Source of the DNA: a virus
Taxonomy: Duplodnaviria > Heunggongvirae > Uroviricota > Caudoviricetes
Strand: one strand, 5' to 3'
DNA: 32,064 bases
Virus record (IMG/VR): IMGVR_UViG_2693429524_000019
Coordinates: 1 to 32,064 of that record
Shown here: in pieces, positions 1,398 to 23,588 of the stretch
Layout: the number at the start of each line of letters is the position of its first letter
Numbering within the stretch: the first letter of the stretch is position 1
Program-made: the position numbers and the translations under genes
Notes under the pieces: model-generated
Told to the model about the DNA's origin: nothing
The model's input: only the letters and a program-made list of their open reading frames with translations
Databases searched by the model: none

Positions 1398-1987
1398 TCA
1401 TTTATCTCCGACCGGAAACTTCTTATACAAAGTCGATACGCCAACATCATAGATGATCTCCACATTCTGGCGATGAACTCCTGATGCAATTAGTCGCCCG
1501 GCCTGCGCCCATTGTTCTGATGAAAGTTTGGGACGGCGACCGCCAATTCGTCCCTGTGCGCGAGCAGCTTCCAGTCCAGCTTTTGTTCGTTCAACAATCA
1601 GTTCACGCTCCATTTCAGCCAGGGCACCCATGACATGAAAAAAGAAACGGCCATTGGGGTGCTGGTATCAATACTGTCAGTCAGGCTTCGGAAATTCACG
1701 CCACGCTGACGCAACTCTTCTATCAGCGTAACAAGATGCCGCATACTGCGCCCCAACCTGTCCAGCTTCCAGACAACCAGAGTGTCTCCTGCCGATAGTG
1801 TCCTGAGCAGTTTTTTAAGCCCCGGTCTGTCGGACTTAGTGCCACTGATTTTATCCTCAAAAACCCGCTCACATCCCGCGCAGTTCAGTGCATCACGTTG
1901 CAGATCGGTGTTCTGGTCATTTGTTGATACGCGTACATAGCCAATAAGTATGTTAAATCCCCCTGGTAAAAGCAGGAATGATGCCAT
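1398..1987 (-). pseudogene. pin: DNA invertase of the Pin/Gin/Hin serine recombinase family, disrupted
   Basis: two ORF fragments (1598..1987 and 1398..1631) together align to recalled Pin/Gin: ..IGYVRVSTNDQNTDLQR.. then ..MGALAEMERELIVERT..GRIGGRRPKL..; canonical start codon is ATA (the peptide reads ILIGYVRV); a one-base loss near 1648-1651 (ATGGCC where ATGGGCC is expected) shifts the frame between the catalytic and HTH domains. Confidence 0.8.
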
Positions 1988-2005
1988 TTGCTTGTTATTT
2001 CTGCA

Positions 2006-2031
2006 TTTTCATAAACGTTGGTTTGGGAGAA
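2006..2031. repeat. candidate invertase crossover site A (gix/pix-like), adjacent to pin
   Basis: TTTTCATAAACGTTGGTTTGGGAGAA resembles recalled gix/hix consensus (AAACC-NN-GGTTT core); shares core TTGGTTT with site B in inverted orientation. Confidence 0.4.
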
Positions 2032-2487
2032 GGTGCTCCAGCTATTGGCGTTCCGTTCTTCTGGCCGTCCGCTGCAATGCCAAATACTGTAATCGACAGC
2101 TGGTCCAGTATGGTGTTTTTGAAGTTCAACGGGGCGAAATTTTCTGCCTCTGATTACCCTGTGCTGGCAAAAGTGTTTCCTTCGCTGGTATTACCTGAAG
2201 CCCGCGGTGATTTCATTCGTATCTGGGATGATGGCCGTGGTGTTGATAGTGGCCGTGCGTTACTTTCCGCGCAATCAGACGATTTCAAAACGCACGAGCA
2301 TAAATTTTTAGGGCTAAATGGAAGTGGCAGTAATGTAGTGTTTGGCACCGTTTCGAATGCTTCTCCATTATATACCAGCGGCGTTAGTCAGCCGGGTGGA
2401 AGTGCTTTGCCCGCTTTTCAAAACCCAGGCGGTACTGAAACGCGTCCCCGTAACATCGCATTCAACTTTTTAGTAAGGGCTAAATAA
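2021..2487 (+). CDS. alternative tail-fibre C-terminal segment (Sv'), silent orientation, no own start
   Basis: reading frame continuous from crossover core; encodes GAPAIGVPFFWPSAAMPNTVIDSWSSMVFLKFNGAKF...GDFIRIWDDGRGVDSGRALLSAQ, a conserved tail-fibre C-terminus of the Mu S / P1 S / e14 StfE type. Confidence 0.6.
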
Positions 2488-3080
2488 TGAAACCTGTTTT
2501 TGATGAAAATGGGCTGGCTACAGTGCCGGGCGATATGCGTTGTTTTTATTATGATGCAGTAACGTATGAATATACGGGCTGGTCTGATGAATATATTAAT
2601 ACTGGCGTAAGTATGCCCGCCTGTTCCACTGGTATTGACCCTGGCGAATACATTCCGGGGAAAGTGGCAGTATTTACGGGTAAGGGATGGAGCCATGAAG
2701 AAGACCACCGCAATGAGACTGTTTACTCAATCGAAAATGGCGCAGCTGTTACAGTGGATTATATCGGTGCCATCAAAGACGGTTATGTCACGCTTTCACC
2801 GTTAACGCCATACGATAAATGGGATGGTGAGAAATGGGTGACCGATACTGAGGCACAGCATAGCGCTGCAGTAGACGCGGCAGAAGCACAGCGTCAGTCA
2901 CTGATTGATGCTGCAATGGCTTCCATCAGTCTGATTCAGCTGAAATTGCAGGCCGCACGTAAACTGACGCAGACAGAAACAACCCGACTTAACGCCGTGC
3001 TGGATTACATTGACGCGGTGACTGCAACAGATACCAGCACCGCGCCGGATGTCATCTTGCCTGAACTGCCGGAGGCGTAG
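2487..3080 (+). CDS. tail fibre assembly protein (U'/Tfa), silent orientation
   Basis: 197 aa; ATG overlaps the Sv' stop (TAATG); C-terminal ..LNAVLDYIDAVTATDTSTAPDVILPELP is a typical Tfa C-terminus; convergent with the other tfa. Confidence 0.7.
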   Translation: MKPVFDENGLATVPGDMRCFYYDAVTYEYTGWSDEYINTGVSMPACSTGIDPGEYIPGKVAVFTGKGWSHEEDHRNETVYSIENGAAVTVDYIGAIKDGYVTLSPLTPYDKWDGEKWVTDTEAQHSAAVDAAEAQRQSLIDAAMASISLIQLKLQAARKLTQTETTRLNAVLDYIDAVTATDTSTAPDVILPELPEA

Positions 3081-3489
3081 GCCATTCAATATCTGGAGCA
3101 CTGGAGGTATCAACCAGTTCCAGTGCGTCCAGATAATCCAGCCACAAATTATATTGCGCCAGTTCCTCACCTTTCAGACGACCAATAGCTGCTTTACCTG
3201 GCCATTGCCTGTTATTCATGTGCTCATTGGCAGTATCTATGCGCCGCTGACGCTCGTATTCTGCCATCTTTATCAGTTCTTCAGGTGCCAGTGGCGGAAT
3301 ATCACTCCATACGGGATAACCATCATCACCCGCAATCCTCATTTTTCCCTCCGGTGGCTTCTGAAATGCAACAAAAGTCTCTTCATCAACTTCCACGCCT
3401 TTTTCGGGCCACATCCCTGCCGCCTCATAGTCTGCCTGCATTGCTAATGGATAAAATGCGTTAGTTACTGCGTCGTATAAATATTTCAT
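3052..3489 (-). CDS. tail fibre assembly protein (U/Tfa), expressed orientation
   Basis: 145 aa, SD AGGAAG upstream, immediately follows tail-fibre gene; C-terminus ..NLWLDYLDALELVDTSSAPDIEWPTPP is paralogous to the U' C-terminus. Confidence 0.7.
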   Translation of the reverse strand: MKYLYDAVTNAFYPLAMQADYEAAGMWPEKGVEVDEETFVAFQKPPEGKMRIAGDDGYPVWSDIPPLAPEELIKMAEYERQRRIDTANEHMNNRQWPGKAAIGRLKGEELAQYNLWLDYLDALELVDTSSAPDIEWPTPPAVQAR

Positions 3490-3491
3490 TT

Positions 3492-4640
3492 TTATCTTCC
3501 TATTGCTATCCAGTTGGCACCAGCTCCTTTGACAGCCCCCTGACGCGATGACGCGAGATAAAAACCATAGTTATTTATCTTACTTGTCGAGAATGCCGGG
3601 CAGTCTTCTGCACTGGTTGGCGTATCGAAAGAACATGCGACGCGATAATCATCGGTAAAAGGTATCGGGAAATTAACAGCAGTTGGGTAGCCAGCAGAGC
3701 CTGAAATGTTCGTACCAAACTGCATGATGGTGCCGTCAGGAAATTTCACCCAGCCAGGACCTGATGTGAAATTAGCCATTGTCGGAACCTGATTAGCCCC
3801 ATTTCCCAGGTTTGCTGTTGCTGCTGAGCCAAGCCCTAAATTTGCTCGTGCGTCGGCAGCTGTGGTCGCGCCGGTTCCGCCCTGACTAAGCGCTAGAGCC
3901 ATTGGCGTTCCGATATTGTTAAGTACGCCCCATGCACCACTATCATTCACAAACAGCCGATAGTTATCGCTTTGTGAAGTAATGTATGTGTCAACTAAGC
4001 CTTGTACTAAACGATTGACGCCAAGGTTACTACGCGCTTCTGCCAGAGAAGTCCCGCCAGTTCCCCCCTTAGACAGAGGTACTGTGTTCTCCGTTGCCAC
4101 ATCTCCCAGACCAAGATTACTACGCGCGCTGGCAGCATCTTTTGCACCTGTACCGCCAGATGATAATTGCAGTGCAATAGTCCCTGCCTGGGGACTTATT
4201 GAATATGCCCCCCATCCATCATTCTGCACAAAAACATAAGATTTTTTGTTTGGTGACCAAATGCGTGTTTCGTTAGTGTCCTGATCACATCTTTCTAAAC
4301 CAAGATTTTCGAGAGCCGTTTTCACCGTGCCGTCCGATTTGATATCGCCAAACGGATTCTTGCGGCTCAGGTATTCAACAGCAAACCCCGATCCCAGCAA
4401 TTCAACAAAACCGGACAGATCACCATTATCAAGCACATCCCGTTGCGTTTTATCACTTACAAACTGGGCCAGAGCTGCAGCAATAAAGCTGGCCTGCCGA
4501 ATAACCTTATTGACTTGCGCACTGGATGCTTTACCTGCTGTAAATCCGGATAAAAGCGCAGGCAACGCTTCCCATTCCTCCTGCGACATAACATTGGCAT
4601 TTTTACCCGTTGCGAATGCTTTAAAGTCATTTTTTGCCAT
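3492..4640 (-). CDS. tail fibre protein (S): constant N-terminal part plus variable C-terminal part
   Basis: 382 aa from ATG at 4640 (TGATG coupling with upstream gene); three repeats of LSxGGTG..(A/S)xxARxNLGLG; last gene of the baseplate operon before the tfa. Confidence 0.75.
   Translation of the reverse strand: MAKNDFKAFATGKNANVMSQEEWEALPALLSGFTAGKASSAQVNKVIRQASFIAAALAQFVSDKTQRDVLDNGDLSGFVELLGSGFAVEYLSRKNPFGDIKSDGTVKTALENLGLERCDQDTNETRIWSPNKKSYVFVQNDGWGAYSISPQAGTIALQLSSGGTGAKDAASARSNLGLGDVATENTVPLSKGGTGGTSLAEARSNLGVNRLVQGLVDTYITSQSDNYRLFVNDSGAWGVLNNIGTPMALALSQGGTGATTAADARANLGLGSAATANLGNGANQVPTMANFTSGPGWVKFPDGTIMQFGTNISGSAGYPTAVNFPIPFTDDYRVACSFDTPTSAEDCPAFSTSKINNYGFYLASSRQGAVKGAGANWIAIGR
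4290..4316. repeat. candidate invertase crossover site B inside the tail-fibre gene
   Basis: plus strand TCTTTCTAAACCAAGATTTTCGAGAG; reverse complement carries the same TTGGTTT core as site A; encodes ..ENLGLER.. in S, frame-compatible with ..NVGLGEG.. at site A. Confidence 0.4.
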
Positions 4641-5320
4641 CAGAGTAATACTCCCCATGCCCCTACATCAAAACCACTGATAAATTCGTTATCCATATCA
4701 AAACCAAAAAATTTTGAGCCTTCCGATGGGGTTTCCACCGAAGGTGTTTCAATGCCACCCGCCCATACCCCGGCGGCTTTTACTGTGAGATACCCCTGTT
4801 TAATTGCCGCAATTAACTCACGCGATACATCTGAAATATCAGTATCAGGAAAGACCCAGACCGATATCGTCATGTCCTGGTTATCGACTATCTGCATTCG
4901 CAGCCCGGATCCTGCTGTTGCAGCGTCAAGAATTGCCGGAAGCGAATCATTCCGTCCATCCCAGTTATTAATCGCAATCTTCGCTTTAAGAATGACACGA
5001 TAAGTTTCATCGCTGAGATACATGTATCCTGAATCAGGATCGTATGGTCCCTGCCATACCCCCTGATCATATCCAAGCCCGTCGGTATCCCAGCTGAAAT
5101 AGACACCTGAGATAGGCTGGCTGACAACACGGCTACGTCCGATCCACAATCCAAGAATGTCAAGTTGCACACCAACCGCAGAGTCAATATCAAATGCAGT
5201 AATCAGCCCTCTGGTGGCAGCCGCAACATCAATAAGTGGCCGGGTCATCAGATCAACATGCGCAAGAAATTTAGGTTTGGTGGCGTGGTAGTTCGTGATT
5301 AGTTCGGTGTATTTGCTCAT
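4640..5320 (-). CDS. tail/baseplate protein (P2 gpI / Mu gp48-like)
   Basis: 226 aa, ATGA overlap with the J-like gene upstream, position between baseplate J and tail fibre. Confidence 0.55.
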   Translation of the reverse strand: MSKYTELITNYHATKPKFLAHVDLMTRPLIDVAAATRGLITAFDIDSAVGVQLDILGLWIGRSRVVSQPISGVYFSWDTDGLGYDQGVWQGPYDPDSGYMYLSDETYRVILKAKIAINNWDGRNDSLPAILDAATAGSGLRMQIVDNQDMTISVWVFPDTDISDVSRELIAAIKQGYLTVKAAGVWAGGIETPSVETPSEGSKFFGFDMDNEFISGFDVGAWGVLL

Positions 5321-20152: not shown

Positions 20153-21470
20153 TCTTGATGTCCTCGTCGGTAATGGATGCCCCGATGCCGGTTACGTCAG
20201 AATTTTCTCGCAAATCAGTCATAGCGGCTTTCAGTGTCATCAGACCATCACCCAGCGCTGTACTGATTGCGTTGGTGGTGTTTAACGCCACCGTTGAGCG
20301 ATCGACATCAGACATTTGCCAGAGCGGGTTAAACTCAAACGTGAAATCGTCCGGCAGTGGTTTGCCAAGTTCCGAACGATGCATGATATCCAGTATCCGC
20401 CGCACCGGAAGACGTAAACGTCTCTCCTGCAGCGAGCTTACCCGGTCGTAATAGTTGGCAAGGTCTGCATCACCGGTAGAAAATCCCTTCGGGGACTGTC
20501 CGAACAACCGCACCAGTGGGATACCAACAGCGCCACTAATCTGTTCTGCAAACTGTGAAAGGATGTCATCCAGACCACTGAAGCTGTACTGATGGGTTTC
20601 AAACTTATCCCGCGAGTCCATGAGCGTCATGCCTTCATTGCTCTGGAACTGTCGAATCAGGTCGATATTCTTCAGCAACGCTTCATACGCAGGACCACCA
20701 AGTGCGATAAGCTCGCGTAGCTTCTCCACGCTGTAGGTACGCAAATGCGCCTTGTAGACCAGCTGCGCCGCGCCGACAGTAGCGCTGTCGAACGCGGTAA
20801 GACGATCCCAGATACGCTCTACAACCGACATTCCCCATTCGTTCTCGGTCATCTTCTGCTGGAATGGCAGCGTGACGCCATCAAAGCGAATCAGACGACT
20901 GTGATGAATGCGCCAGGCAGGAATGCCCGTTGCTGTGGTCACCACATCGTAAAACTCAGGTTTACCCAGGTCCGGCCCCATATCTTTAATGCGGCGGGTC
21001 AGTACCGGGTCAATCATCCAGCGGTCGAGCGGGAGAATCCCCTTAAACTTGCCTTTACCGATGGTTTCGGGTCGCAGCGGGGTCATTGGTGCCTGCCCCT
21101 CAATCATGATGAAACCCACCGCGCCGCCGTAGAGGCGCGACCATTTCAGCACGTCATTCAGCGCATCCCAGATTTGCAACTCATCCAGTTGTGATTCTAG
21201 AATGCCACGATCTTTTGCATCAATTTCCGAAGTAATGCGAATGCCTTTGCGGGTCATATCATCCGGGATAGCATCGACTGCTTCGCCGATAATCCAGGAT
21301 GAACGATAGGACCATTCCACCAGCATGCGGTTACGACTGGTGAAATTAGCCCGATAGGTGGATGCTGAGTGCTGGTTAGGTGTCTGCATCCCTACGCGGG
21401 CAATAAAATTCTCATAACCATCAGCTGTGGCCTGCGCAGTTCGCCGCAGGGCTTGTTTGTTTCGTGCCAT
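20004..21470 (-). CDS. portal protein
   Basis: 488 aa, ATGA overlap with the terminase large subunit stop; acidic proline-rich C-terminus. Confidence 0.7.
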   Translation of the reverse strand: MARNKQALRRTAQATADGYENFIARVGMQTPNQHSASTYRANFTSRNRMLVEWSYRSSWIIGEAVDAIPDDMTRKGIRITSEIDAKDRGILESQLDELQIWDALNDVLKWSRLYGGAVGFIMIEGQAPMTPLRPETIGKGKFKGILPLDRWMIDPVLTRRIKDMGPDLGKPEFYDVVTTATGIPAWRIHHSRLIRFDGVTLPFQQKMTENEWGMSVVERIWDRLTAFDSATVGAAQLVYKAHLRTYSVEKLRELIALGGPAYEALLKNIDLIRQFQSNEGMTLMDSRDKFETHQYSFSGLDDILSQFAEQISGAVGIPLVRLFGQSPKGFSTGDADLANYYDRVSSLQERRLRLPVRRILDIMHRSELGKPLPDDFTFEFNPLWQMSDVDRSTVALNTTNAISTALGDGLMTLKAAMTDLRENSDVTGIGASITDEDIKNAEDEAPPGIGEPGDEPQEPSGGNPVSNQPTQDSAGGRGHRKWSLRWFK

Positions 21471-22873
21471 CAGGCCTGTCTCCCCAGCTGTTCCCAGATA
21501 TCCAGCGATGTATCAATTGGCGCGAAGGCCATAATGAATGCGTCAGCAACGTTTGGTGACAGTATCTCGCGTTTTGCGAGGTCTTTTTTACTTTCGACCA
21601 TCACACGTCCGTTACGGTCAAAATCGCGATGAGGTGTTGTCAGTTCCAGTTTCAGCTTTTCAAGCAACGGACAACGAGAATCTATGCTGATCAGCTCATC
21701 CACAGGATACTGTTCTCCGTTGTTAATGGCGTTAAACGTATTTCTGAAACGGTCAGCCACCAGCCACCATGCCTGAGCCTTAAGATTTGCGAAAAAGTCT
21801 TTGTTGGGGATGCCGTTGTATTCGTCATCTGGCTCATGCACACCAGCACCGGCGTTAAACCTCTGGTAATTCACTCGTCTCGCGTATGCATTCTCGCTCT
21901 TCCGGTCAGCGTTAATTTCAGAGAATTTAGCACCGGCAGACGCACCAACACCGATAGAGTCGTAAACAATATCTGCTTCACGCTCCAGCGCCGCCTGATA
22001 AGTACGCTGGCAGCTCTTCAGTAATTCATCTTCTTTGGCCTTCCATTCGTCGGCCCAGAAAACAACGGATCCGTGACGGTAAACGTTAGCGCACTTATCT
22101 GTACCACTGTCAGCCACGTCAAAGCCAATACGCTTTCTTCCACTGGGTTCGAAATTTAACGTTTTGTGCGCATCCACTGCGGCTTCTATCCAGGACAGTT
22201 TGATGATTGCCGCATCATCATCAGACTCCGGAACGCCCTCATACACATGTTTAAAACCATCCGGATCACGGCGTCGCGCCGCGTCGATAACCTTAAGCAT
22301 GGTGTCAGACAGAAACGGATTTTCGTCATAGTTAATTTTGCGGATGAGAGTGCCTTCGGGCGGATCAACAACGAAGTTGCGCCAGACGAAATCAGTAACC
22401 AGTCCGGGGTTGAATATGAACCAGCATTCCGACCCCTCTTTACGGATCGTTGGCTCCAGAATTTTCCACTGGTATTCCGTCAGTGCGTGGGCTTCTTCCA
22501 GCCACAACACATCGATCCCCTCCAGTGACTTAATTTCTTCGATGTTGCGCCATAATCCATAAAAAACAAATTCCGAGCCAGTAACCCGGTTAATGATTTT
22601 GTTGTTCAGAATACGGAAACGGTGCCGCAGGCCAAACCTGTCTATCTGAATTTTGAGCAGGGTATACACCGACTCTTCGATTTTGTTCTGGATCTGACGG
22701 GCACAACAAAAACGCAGGGTGTATTTATTCGACAGAAATATGGCAATGCCAGCGGCATCCCATGATTTTGACGATGACCGGCCACCATAAAGCACTTTGT
22801 TACGTGCCCGCGTAGTCCAGAAACTACGTAAAGCCGGATTAAGCGTCGGTTTGGATGTCAGAGTAGAAGTCAT
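21470..22873 (-). CDS. terminase large subunit
   Basis: ~467 aa from ATG at 22873; Walker A-like GGRSSSKS near the N-terminus. Confidence 0.8.
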   Translation of the reverse strand: MTSTLTSKPTLNPALRSFWTTRARNKVLYGGRSSSKSWDAAGIAIFLSNKYTLRFCCARQIQNKIEESVYTLLKIQIDRFGLRHRFRILNNKIINRVTGSEFVFYGLWRNIEEIKSLEGIDVLWLEEAHALTEYQWKILEPTIRKEGSECWFIFNPGLVTDFVWRNFVVDPPEGTLIRKINYDENPFLSDTMLKVIDAARRRDPDGFKHVYEGVPESDDDAAIIKLSWIEAAVDAHKTLNFEPSGRKRIGFDVADSGTDKCANVYRHGSVVFWADEWKAKEDELLKSCQRTYQAALEREADIVYDSIGVGASAGAKFSEINADRKSENAYARRVNYQRFNAGAGVHEPDDEYNGIPNKDFFANLKAQAWWLVADRFRNTFNAINNGEQYPVDELISIDSRCPLLEKLKLELTTPHRDFDRNGRVMVESKKDLAKREILSPNVADAFIMAFAPIDTSLDIWEQLGRQA

Positions 22874-23588
22874 TGAGGTCACGCTCTCCATTGCCATCAT
22901 CAATACCTGCATCACGGCGAAGACGATCAGCCTCCAGAGACACCTTATCAGTGGCGGCCTTGCGGTAGGCTGTATCAGCAAATATTTTTCCTACCGTCGC
23001 AAGCGTGCCAACGATGGACTCAATACGAACTGTATTGCGCATCATTGCTTTCTCGGCGGCGCTGATATTTTCCATCAGCATCTTCCTTTCCTGGTCCCCA
23101 TTAGCATCTTCCAGCGACACCAGCCACCGACCAATATTCTCTGCAGCGACAAGGTTGTTAGCACGAAGGCGAAATAATTCGTCCTCGAGCGTCAACGCTT
23201 TAGCGTCCTCTATCACCTCATCTTTGAGCAGAAGGCGACGGGCATAACCACCGTGTTTTAATGCCTGCTGGTTACCGGGTTGGAATGGGTTAGTCGGGGG
23301 ATCGGTACGCATTCCGCGTATCGGTTTCGTATCCGGTGTAGCTTCTGTTTTTGGTTGCGTACCTTTTTGTGTAAGGCCAGTAATGGCAGGCTTTCTGCTG
23401 GTACGCACTTTTCTTTTTTGCGTACCATTTTTGCAAACCTGCGTACCGCCACTGCGTACCCAACCAAGCTTTTTAGCCCTCTTCCTGATAGCCCCTTCTG
23501 TTACGCCGTATTTCTCGCCTATATCACGGAGGCTAAGGACTCCGGCCCGGTATGCCGATTCGATGGCCTCCCAGTCCGGTTTTGCCAT
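22839..23588 (-). CDS. terminase small subunit
   Basis: 249 aa, SD AAGAGGAAA; N-terminal HTH-like region and ..NPFQPGNQQALKHGGY.. motif typical of small terminase subunits. Confidence 0.6.
   Translation of the reverse strand: MAKPDWEAIESAYRAGVLSLRDIGEKYGVTEGAIRKRAKKLGWVRSGGTQVCKNGTQKRKVRTSRKPAITGLTQKGTQPKTEATPDTKPIRGMRTDPPTNPFQPGNQQALKHGGYARRLLLKDEVIEDAKALTLEDELFRLRANNLVAAENIGRWLVSLEDANGDQERKMLMENISAAEKAMMRNTVRIESIVGTLATVGKIFADTAYRKAATDKVSLEADRLRRDAGIDDGNGERDLNDFYSDIQTDA

Follow-up and report, generated by a model that had tools for sequence, protein, structure and literature searches.

The closest described relatives of the locus presented here are the DNA inversion systems of the Gin/Pin/Cin/Hin family, above all the P segment of e14 with its invertase PinE, and the G segment of phage Mu with its invertase Gin, together with Cin of P1 and Hin of Salmonella. 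The crossover sites of this family, such as the hix and gix sites, usually consist of AAAC-type half-sites flanking a 2-bp core. A recombinational enhancer that depends on Fis, as in hin and gin, also belongs to such systems and lies within the 5' portion of the invertase gene. [quoted passage not shown]

Here, we describe a member of this family from the window, by which we mean the whole stretch of 32,064 nucleotides of viral DNA that was analysed. Judging from its gene content and flank, the window corresponds to the end of a prophage of the myovirus type, inserted beside pphA-yebW-yebV(-rsmF) in E. coli. The PHROGs found in it include the terminase large subunit, portal, head protease, major head protein, sheath, tape measure, and endolysin, as well as a Q-like antiterminator and NinB, while Pfam identifies Terminase_3 and a Mu F-like protein. 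In relatives, baseplate J/gp47 and wedge proteins are annotated, and the nearest phage records are those of the vB_EcoM-606R2 group. From this sequence content, the morphogenesis genes of the prophage look complete. A 249-aa ORF on the minus strand (22839-23588), without a Pfam match and overlapping the 5' end of the terminase large-subunit ORF (21470-22981), could encode the small terminase subunit.

The resemblance to PinE and e14 is close. The proximal crossover site of the window contains exactly the published inverted repeat of the e14 P segment, CCTTCTCCCAAACCAA (PMC12529663), and in both cases the invertase gene adjoins a segment with two opposed cassettes, each made of a fibre tip and its chaperone. 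The gene bears the RefSeq name pinE in the relatives of the window, and the cassette now in the expressed orientation (cassette A, window 3115-4296) is 99.7% identical to positions 4085-5266 of L012, a decayed prophage remnant by prfC in E. coli 33-6 that is annotated with an stfP pseudogene. Contrary to e14, the host element is a myovirus-type prophage at pphA, with a sheath, Q/NinB early genes and the baseplate J/gp47 annotated in its relatives. Its segment is also longer, 2.3 kb compared with the 1.8 kb of the e14 P segment (PMC12529663), its distal site has diverged, and its invertase is a pseudogene.

The likeness to Gin and the G segment of Mu is best seen in the protein which, once its missing base is restored, pairs from residue 1 to residue 181 with the same positions of Mu Gin in an ungapped alignment (PDB 3UJ3/4M6F, E 2e-91), through ...SPMGRFFFHVMGALAE..., and has its serine nucleophile, S9, within the GYVRVS motif. 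The sites are likewise 26 bp long, with AAAC-type half-sites around a 2-bp core, and the alternative tail-fibre C-termini with their chaperones would, by analogy, act as a host-range switch. What distinguishes the window from Mu is the lack of an intact invertase ORF. With PinQ on the e14 P segment and Fin on the Salmonella H segment, the window shares a segment on which the neighbouring invertase does not act, or does not act alone. However, the cis invertase is intact in those cases, whereas in the window it is dead and action in trans is the sole, and here putative, route. The locus is thus placed among known systems and is no new kind of system, the same allele having already been flagged as a frameshifted pinE in RefSeq.

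The invertase gene is read on the minus strand and shows the following features:

1398..1951, minus strand: pin (pinE-like) serine DNA invertase pseudogene, 554 nt where 555 are expected
1949..1951, minus strand: start-codon lesion, ATA where relatives have ATG (minus-strand reading and allele alignment)
1651..1652, minus strand: one-base deletion in a G-run, GG for GGG, causing a frameshift at codon 101 (allele alignment and tblastn)
1892..1894, minus strand: a third change, AAT>GAT, replacing N20 by D in the conserved LQRNAL motif, in the window only among the aligned alleles
1985..1987, minus strand: in-frame upstream ATG, 12 codons 5' of the canonical start, an ATG in all alleles
1637..1643, minus strand: T TTT TTC run, formed by the native FFF codons of pin (sequence reading)

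A preliminary description of this locus, made from the sequence alone, had recognised a Pin/Gin-type invertase with two inactivating lesions, an ATA in place of the canonical initiator and the loss of a single base, and our analysis bears out these points. Insertion of one G yields an uninterrupted protein of 184 aa, with the N-terminal catalytic domain (Pfam Resolvase, PF00239, E 2e-53) followed by HTH_7 (PF02796, E 1e-10). At the canonical start, the minus strand reads ...GGGGGATTTAAC ATA CTT ATT GGC TAT GTA CGC GTA TCA ACA AAT GAC CAG, which is translated from the ATA (1951-1949) as ILIGYVRVSTNDQ (I-L-I-G-Y-V-R-V-S-T-N-D-Q), with a Shine-Dalgarno-like GGGGGA located 6 nt 5' of the ATA, at 1963-1958. 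The deletion appears in the context CCA ATG GCC GTT TCT TTT TTC ATG, where all intact relatives have ATGGGNCGT; it is real, but the position first given for it, near 1648-1651, was about 3 nt off, the ATGGCC in question occupying 1654-1649. The third change, N20D, is absent from the preliminary description, and the asparagine it replaces is conserved in Mu Gin.

The frameshift leaves two minus-strand ORFs in different frames, one of 129 aa (1598..1987) and an overlapping one of 77 aa (1398..1631), the latter retaining HTH_7. When an intact Pin is compared with the window by tblastn, two HSPs in different frames are obtained, which place aa 1-105 at 1951..1637 and aa 99-184 at 1658..1401. The preliminary description had put this split between the catalytic and the HTH domains; the two frames are there, but the break falls at residue 100/101, inside the Resolvase domain. 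It does not strictly separate the two domains, because the Resolvase profile (145 positions) runs across both ORFs, the N-terminal one covering positions 2-112 and the C-terminal one positions 117-144 in addition to HTH_7. Going by the structures of Gin and resolvases, the break would presumably fall close to where the long E helix begins. Functional members are read in one frame, about 184-193 aa long, from a usable start codon; the window instead offers an ATA, a 1-nt deletion and two ORFs, and pin is a pseudogene of the Gin/Pin/Cin/Hin family and not a functional member of it.

It had also been suggested that the ATG at 1987 could rescue initiation, if not the frame. This codon is indeed in frame, 12 codons upstream, and leaves the frameshift uncured, but the rescue itself is a weak proposal. 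Since the upstream ATG is present in every allele, intact ones included, it is not a compensating feature, and sequence reading found no Shine-Dalgarno-like sequence 5' of it. The upstream ATG was set aside as a rescue on these grounds.

Short G-runs are indel-prone on some sequencing platforms, and the deletion sits in such a run, so one could think of a sequencing or assembly artefact, that is, a homopolymer miscall in a gene that is actually intact. The comparison with other loci makes this extremely improbable. The pin region of the window was aligned with eleven loci (L001-L011), the first of which is E. coli COL60J (NZ_CP092244). Over 1300-2100, COL60J is 99.8% identical to the window and has both lesions, and its RefSeq annotation reads "pinE, frameshifted" at the equivalent of 1951..1398; it is the only complete E. 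coli genome with at least 99% identity over the whole pin query. Both lesions are also present in a Logan contig (L008). The exact 77-aa C-terminal ORF was found in the protein collection in 36 contigs, under the name of the e14-type invertase of E. coli, and its index entries span 55 blocks of assemblies made from independent sequencing runs; the exact 129-aa ORF is absent from the same collection. The deletion is therefore not peculiar to one assembly, as a complete genome in RefSeq has it and so do many independent assemblies from Logan, ENA and NCBI, and the ATA substitution, common to COL60J and L008, is of a kind that homopolymer error does not explain. Because both lesions recur in independent assemblies, we take them as genuine mutations and dismiss the artefact, and we have little doubt that pin at 1398..1951 is a true pseudogene.

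The distribution of the lesions also gives their order. The G deletion is common to nine sequences, namely the window, L001 and L005-L011; three of these nine (the window, L001 and L008) also have the ATA, ATG being found in L002-L007 and L009-L011, and only the window among the aligned sequences has N20D. From this nested distribution it follows that the G at codon 101 would have been lost first, the start codon would have changed from ATG to ATA second, and N20D would have arisen last, in the lineage of the window. Other changes within the deletion clade are L45F in the conserved RPGL motif (L005, L007, L009) and a synonymous GAA>GAG (L006, L011). The conserved-motif replacements, together with the loss of the start codon, fit relaxed constraint on these sequences, with the counts being small. 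At the same pphA locus, GCEC19 encodes an intact Pin of 184 aa, and CM2010-0578/1 has an ATG and the whole G-run with a different 1-nt deletion, GGGTGCC>GGGGCC. This frameshift is independent, so that at one and the same locus the invertase was lost at least twice.

Some further observations were made on these relatives. COL60J has an insertion of the IS3 family that separates the wedge gene from the fibre gene (L001 2658-3886), so the sibling prophage in this strain is further decayed. Close homologues of pin (P0125, P0006, P0007, P0139, P0140, P0002, and L002 4001-4801) show at least six frameshift positions (after L90, after I94, in the C-run, in the G-run, in the T-run, and GGGT>GGG), all at codons ~90-111, a clustering that may partly come from the search ranking of the hits. 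One of them, P0002, combines the window-type deletion with a second indel and regains the frame after a patch of 11 residues. Phage vB_EcoM-606R2, the nearest deposited phage genome, encodes only a truncated "DNA invertase" of 104 aa (L003 2426-2740), whose homology to the window pin stops at window position 1712.

What the invertase gene has lost can be set against what its target retains. The invertible segment next to it comprises these features:

2006..2031, plus-strand reading: proximal 26-bp crossover site, TTTTCATAAACG TT GGTTTGGGAGAA (homology breakpoints 2013-2032)
4290..4315, minus-strand reading: distal 26-bp crossover site in the fibre gene, CTCTCGAAAATC TT GGTTTAGAAAGA, inverted with respect to the proximal site
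2018..4303, no strand: invertible segment, about 2.3 kb between the central dinucleotides (site comparison, BLAST breakpoints, simulated inversion)
3492..4658, minus strand: tail fibre gene in the expressed orientation, 388 aa (ORF table, Pfam)
3052..3489, minus strand: tail fibre assembly chaperone paired with the expressed tip, 145 aa (Caudo_TAP, E 6e-33)
2487..3080, plus strand: tail fibre assembly chaperone in the silent orientation, 197 aa, intact ORF (Caudo_TAP, E 2.5e-24)
2020..2487, plus strand: silent alternative fibre tip (simulated inversion)

The two inverted sites, one near the invertase and the other within the fibre gene, share the central TT when read into the segment, and the homology to relatives, as seen by BLAST, breaks exactly at them. 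The distal one falls at ...ENLGLE... of the 388-aa fibre, and divides it into a constant part (4658..~4304) and a variable tip (4302..3492) with a Gp53-like C-terminal domain. The two opposed cassettes of fibre tip and chaperone can be fused in frame to the constant part in either orientation: inversion of 2018-4303 was simulated and gave an in-frame fibre of 274 aa, about 96% identical to the expressed fibre of L008. Another inverted repeat (I2, 2033-2047 / 3087-3101, 15 nt, imperfect), with one arm just inside the proximal site and the other close to where the two chaperone genes meet, was taken as a probable chance match, because no crossover-type core is adjacent to it and both arms lie within coding sequence.

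The distal site departs at 4 of 26 positions from CTCTCGAAAACC TT GGTTTGGGAGAA, the form found in L003 (a phage record), L004, L005, L006 and L008, GCEC19 included, and the differences reach the outer half-site, AAAATC compared with AAAACC. It is this usual form that is seen in the loci with documented inversion, two of which have an uninterrupted invertase frame. Based on this comparison, the diverged site may be a poor substrate. It appears to have come with cassette A, which is missing from the closest pin relatives, whereas cassette B of the window is 95.7% identical to theirs. Cassette A can also be regarded, in its own right, as evidence of cassette import with its own inner half-site. 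Among the complete E. coli genomes, none covers at least 80% of 1990-4420, and a second copy of the window segment was not found.

Since the active-site half and the DNA-binding half of Pin are in different reading frames, no full-length invertase would be produced, and with pin dead the prophage would be unable to flip its tail-fibre segment by its own means. The other parts of the switch are in place, with two inverted 26-bp sites with matching TT and two intact fibre-tip/chaperone cassettes. Thus, the segment can be seen as an "orphan", predicted to flip only when the cell supplies a Pin-family invertase from another source. This combination of a stepwise-inactivated pin pseudogene and an orphan segment is, with high probability, the best explanation of the locus.

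The behaviour of such a segment can be followed in related loci, where both orientations are found beside frameshifted pin genes (L005 vs L006, L008 vs COL60J) as well as between L008 and GCEC19. The cleanest example comes from a P2-like prophage, represented by L014 and L015, which have the same split invertase, P0007, with the shift after L90. Their flanks are 100% identical over 1,561 and 3,936 nt, and between these flanks lie tail-fibre segments of 1.9 kb (L014 1547-3445, L015 3433-1535) that are 99.8% identical and inverted; their proximal site is the same as that of the window in 26 of 26 positions. Read at this level of identity, the pair is a clean natural inversion beside a dead cis invertase.

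Closer to the window are L008 and COL60J, which have an identical double-lesion pin (0 differences), in each case that of the window minus the N20D base. Their cassettes B are identical in 1,082 of 1,082 positions but lie at opposite ends of the segment and in opposite orientations: the one in COL60J adjoins pin and is silent, and the one in L008 occupies the far end and is oriented for expression. The flanks from pin to yebW (2,032 nt) have only 12 nt differences, with the breakpoint at the crossover site, so that a 1.7-kb identical tract that is continuous in one locus is split and inverted exactly at this site in the other. From this tract we infer a site-specific inversion later than the lesions. 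The second cassettes of the two loci are only 78.5% identical, which means that the comparison is not one of pure inversion. Between L005 and L006, both with the deletion and an ATG start, the whole 1.8-kb segments are mutually inverted, with 95.4% identity. In L006 (SRR30116535), the same deletion-bearing pin, segment and pphA flank are found on a different, Mu-like baseplate module (gp45/46/47/48), which shows that recombination is also at work and that the module of pin, segment and pphA is exchanged between prophage backbones. Homologous recombination could, on this evidence, have put a lesion-bearing pin beside segments of either orientation. Contigs L010 and L011, which end at the crossover site or close to it, were set aside as a sign of mixed orientation, since cassette repeats elsewhere in the genomes also break assemblies.

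Flipped segments beside two independent frameshifted alleles, both with the shift 5' of the T-run, could also be accounted for if the gene were leaky, with a weak start at the AUA or the upstream AUG and a -1 slip on U UUU UUC (1643-1637) giving a near-normal Pin and flipping at a low rate. In the shifted frame this heptamer is in phase, and slipping by -1 on it restores ...HVMGALAEMERE..., so that the predicted product would differ only by A-V-S in place of G101-R102-F103 (putative junction peptide ...PMAVSFFHVMGAL...); initiation at AUA is likewise measurable (bioRxiv 10.1101/063800). Nevertheless, we consider leaky expression very unlikely. The T-run consists of native FFF codons that are present in every intact allele, the sequence downstream has no stimulatory structure (z = 0.23, with 108 of 200 shuffles folding at least as well), and the loss of the start codon and the conserved-motif replacements point to no selection on the gene. 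Heptamers without a stimulator reach in E. coli at most ~10x a background of 0.055%, that is, about 0.5% (PMC4066793), and AUA initiates at 0.02-3% of AUG (bioRxiv 10.1101/063800); therefore, the expected leaky output is at most ~1e-4 of the wild type. For the flips themselves, trans-acting paralogs are the simpler account. A programmed -1 frameshift at U UUU UUC was rejected, the motif being native, the downstream structure missing and the stimulator-free efficiency low, and the phase of the heptamer was taken as coincidental.

The alleles with a -1 deletion 5' of the T-run (in the G-run, in the C-run, after L90 and after I94) all read into the same in-phase U UUU UUC, and a -1 slip on it would bring the ribosome back into frame after a short altered patch. 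The frameshifts recurring at codons ~90-111 and the flipped segments beside two of these alleles could be read in the same direction. That this heptamer is a built-in "saviour" slippery site, keeping frameshifted pin genes at a very low and tunable expression, is an idea we rate slightly lower still than leakiness as such; if true, it would be a switch on the switch, and frameshifted pins would not be dead ends.

Returning to the orphan segment, Pin-like DNA is present in 3,027 of 5,426 complete E. coli genomes, in 1-7 places per genome. The sibling alleles would have been inverted after their lesions through such trans-acting invertases, and, to judge from these loci, flipping in trans is most likely the general behaviour of orphan segments. 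The preliminary description had concluded that the switch is probably locked unless another invertase acts in trans, and had called for a search for paralogs. This search, run over the 32-kb window by tblastn with an intact Pin, revealed no other invertase. The conclusion itself is not established, as double-lesion siblings are found in opposite orientations, the P2-like prophage shows inversion, and inversion in trans is documented. What was stated there as the exception is probably the rule.

For the strain from which the window comes, a permanently locked switch, fixed on the 388-aa fibre with the silent cassette awaiting decay, is a serious possibility to which we give somewhat less than even weight. 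A non-functional cis Pin, the window free of any other invertase, the divergence of the distal site at 4 of 26 positions from the form of L003-L006 and L008, its outer half-site included, and the IS3 decay of the closest relative, COL60J (in the fibre gene region by annotation), would all agree with it. However, the ORFs of the silent tip and its chaperone have stayed intact and fuse in frame after simulated inversion, sibling double-lesion alleles are present in both orientations, and inversion in trans by paralogs is documented (PMC12529663). The divergence of the distal site is moreover to be read against the variation of natural crossover sites, since at the position where AAACC is read in the distal sites of L003-L006 and L008, the proximal site itself reads AAACG. 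On balance, we regard the chances that the segment 2018-4303 is still invertible in trans in the source strain as about even.

The inactivation of pin is an ordinary, already annotated type of prophage decay. In terms of annotation, pin is a real pseudogene, and this prophage cannot drive its own host-range switch. The population data add natural examples to the experimentally observed action of Pin-family invertases across prophages. Given the inversions beside frameshifted pin genes, a dead neighbouring invertase alone does not equal a locked tail-fibre or receptor-blocking phenotype, and the prediction of phase-variable states from sequence should count every invertase in the cell, beyond the adjacent one.
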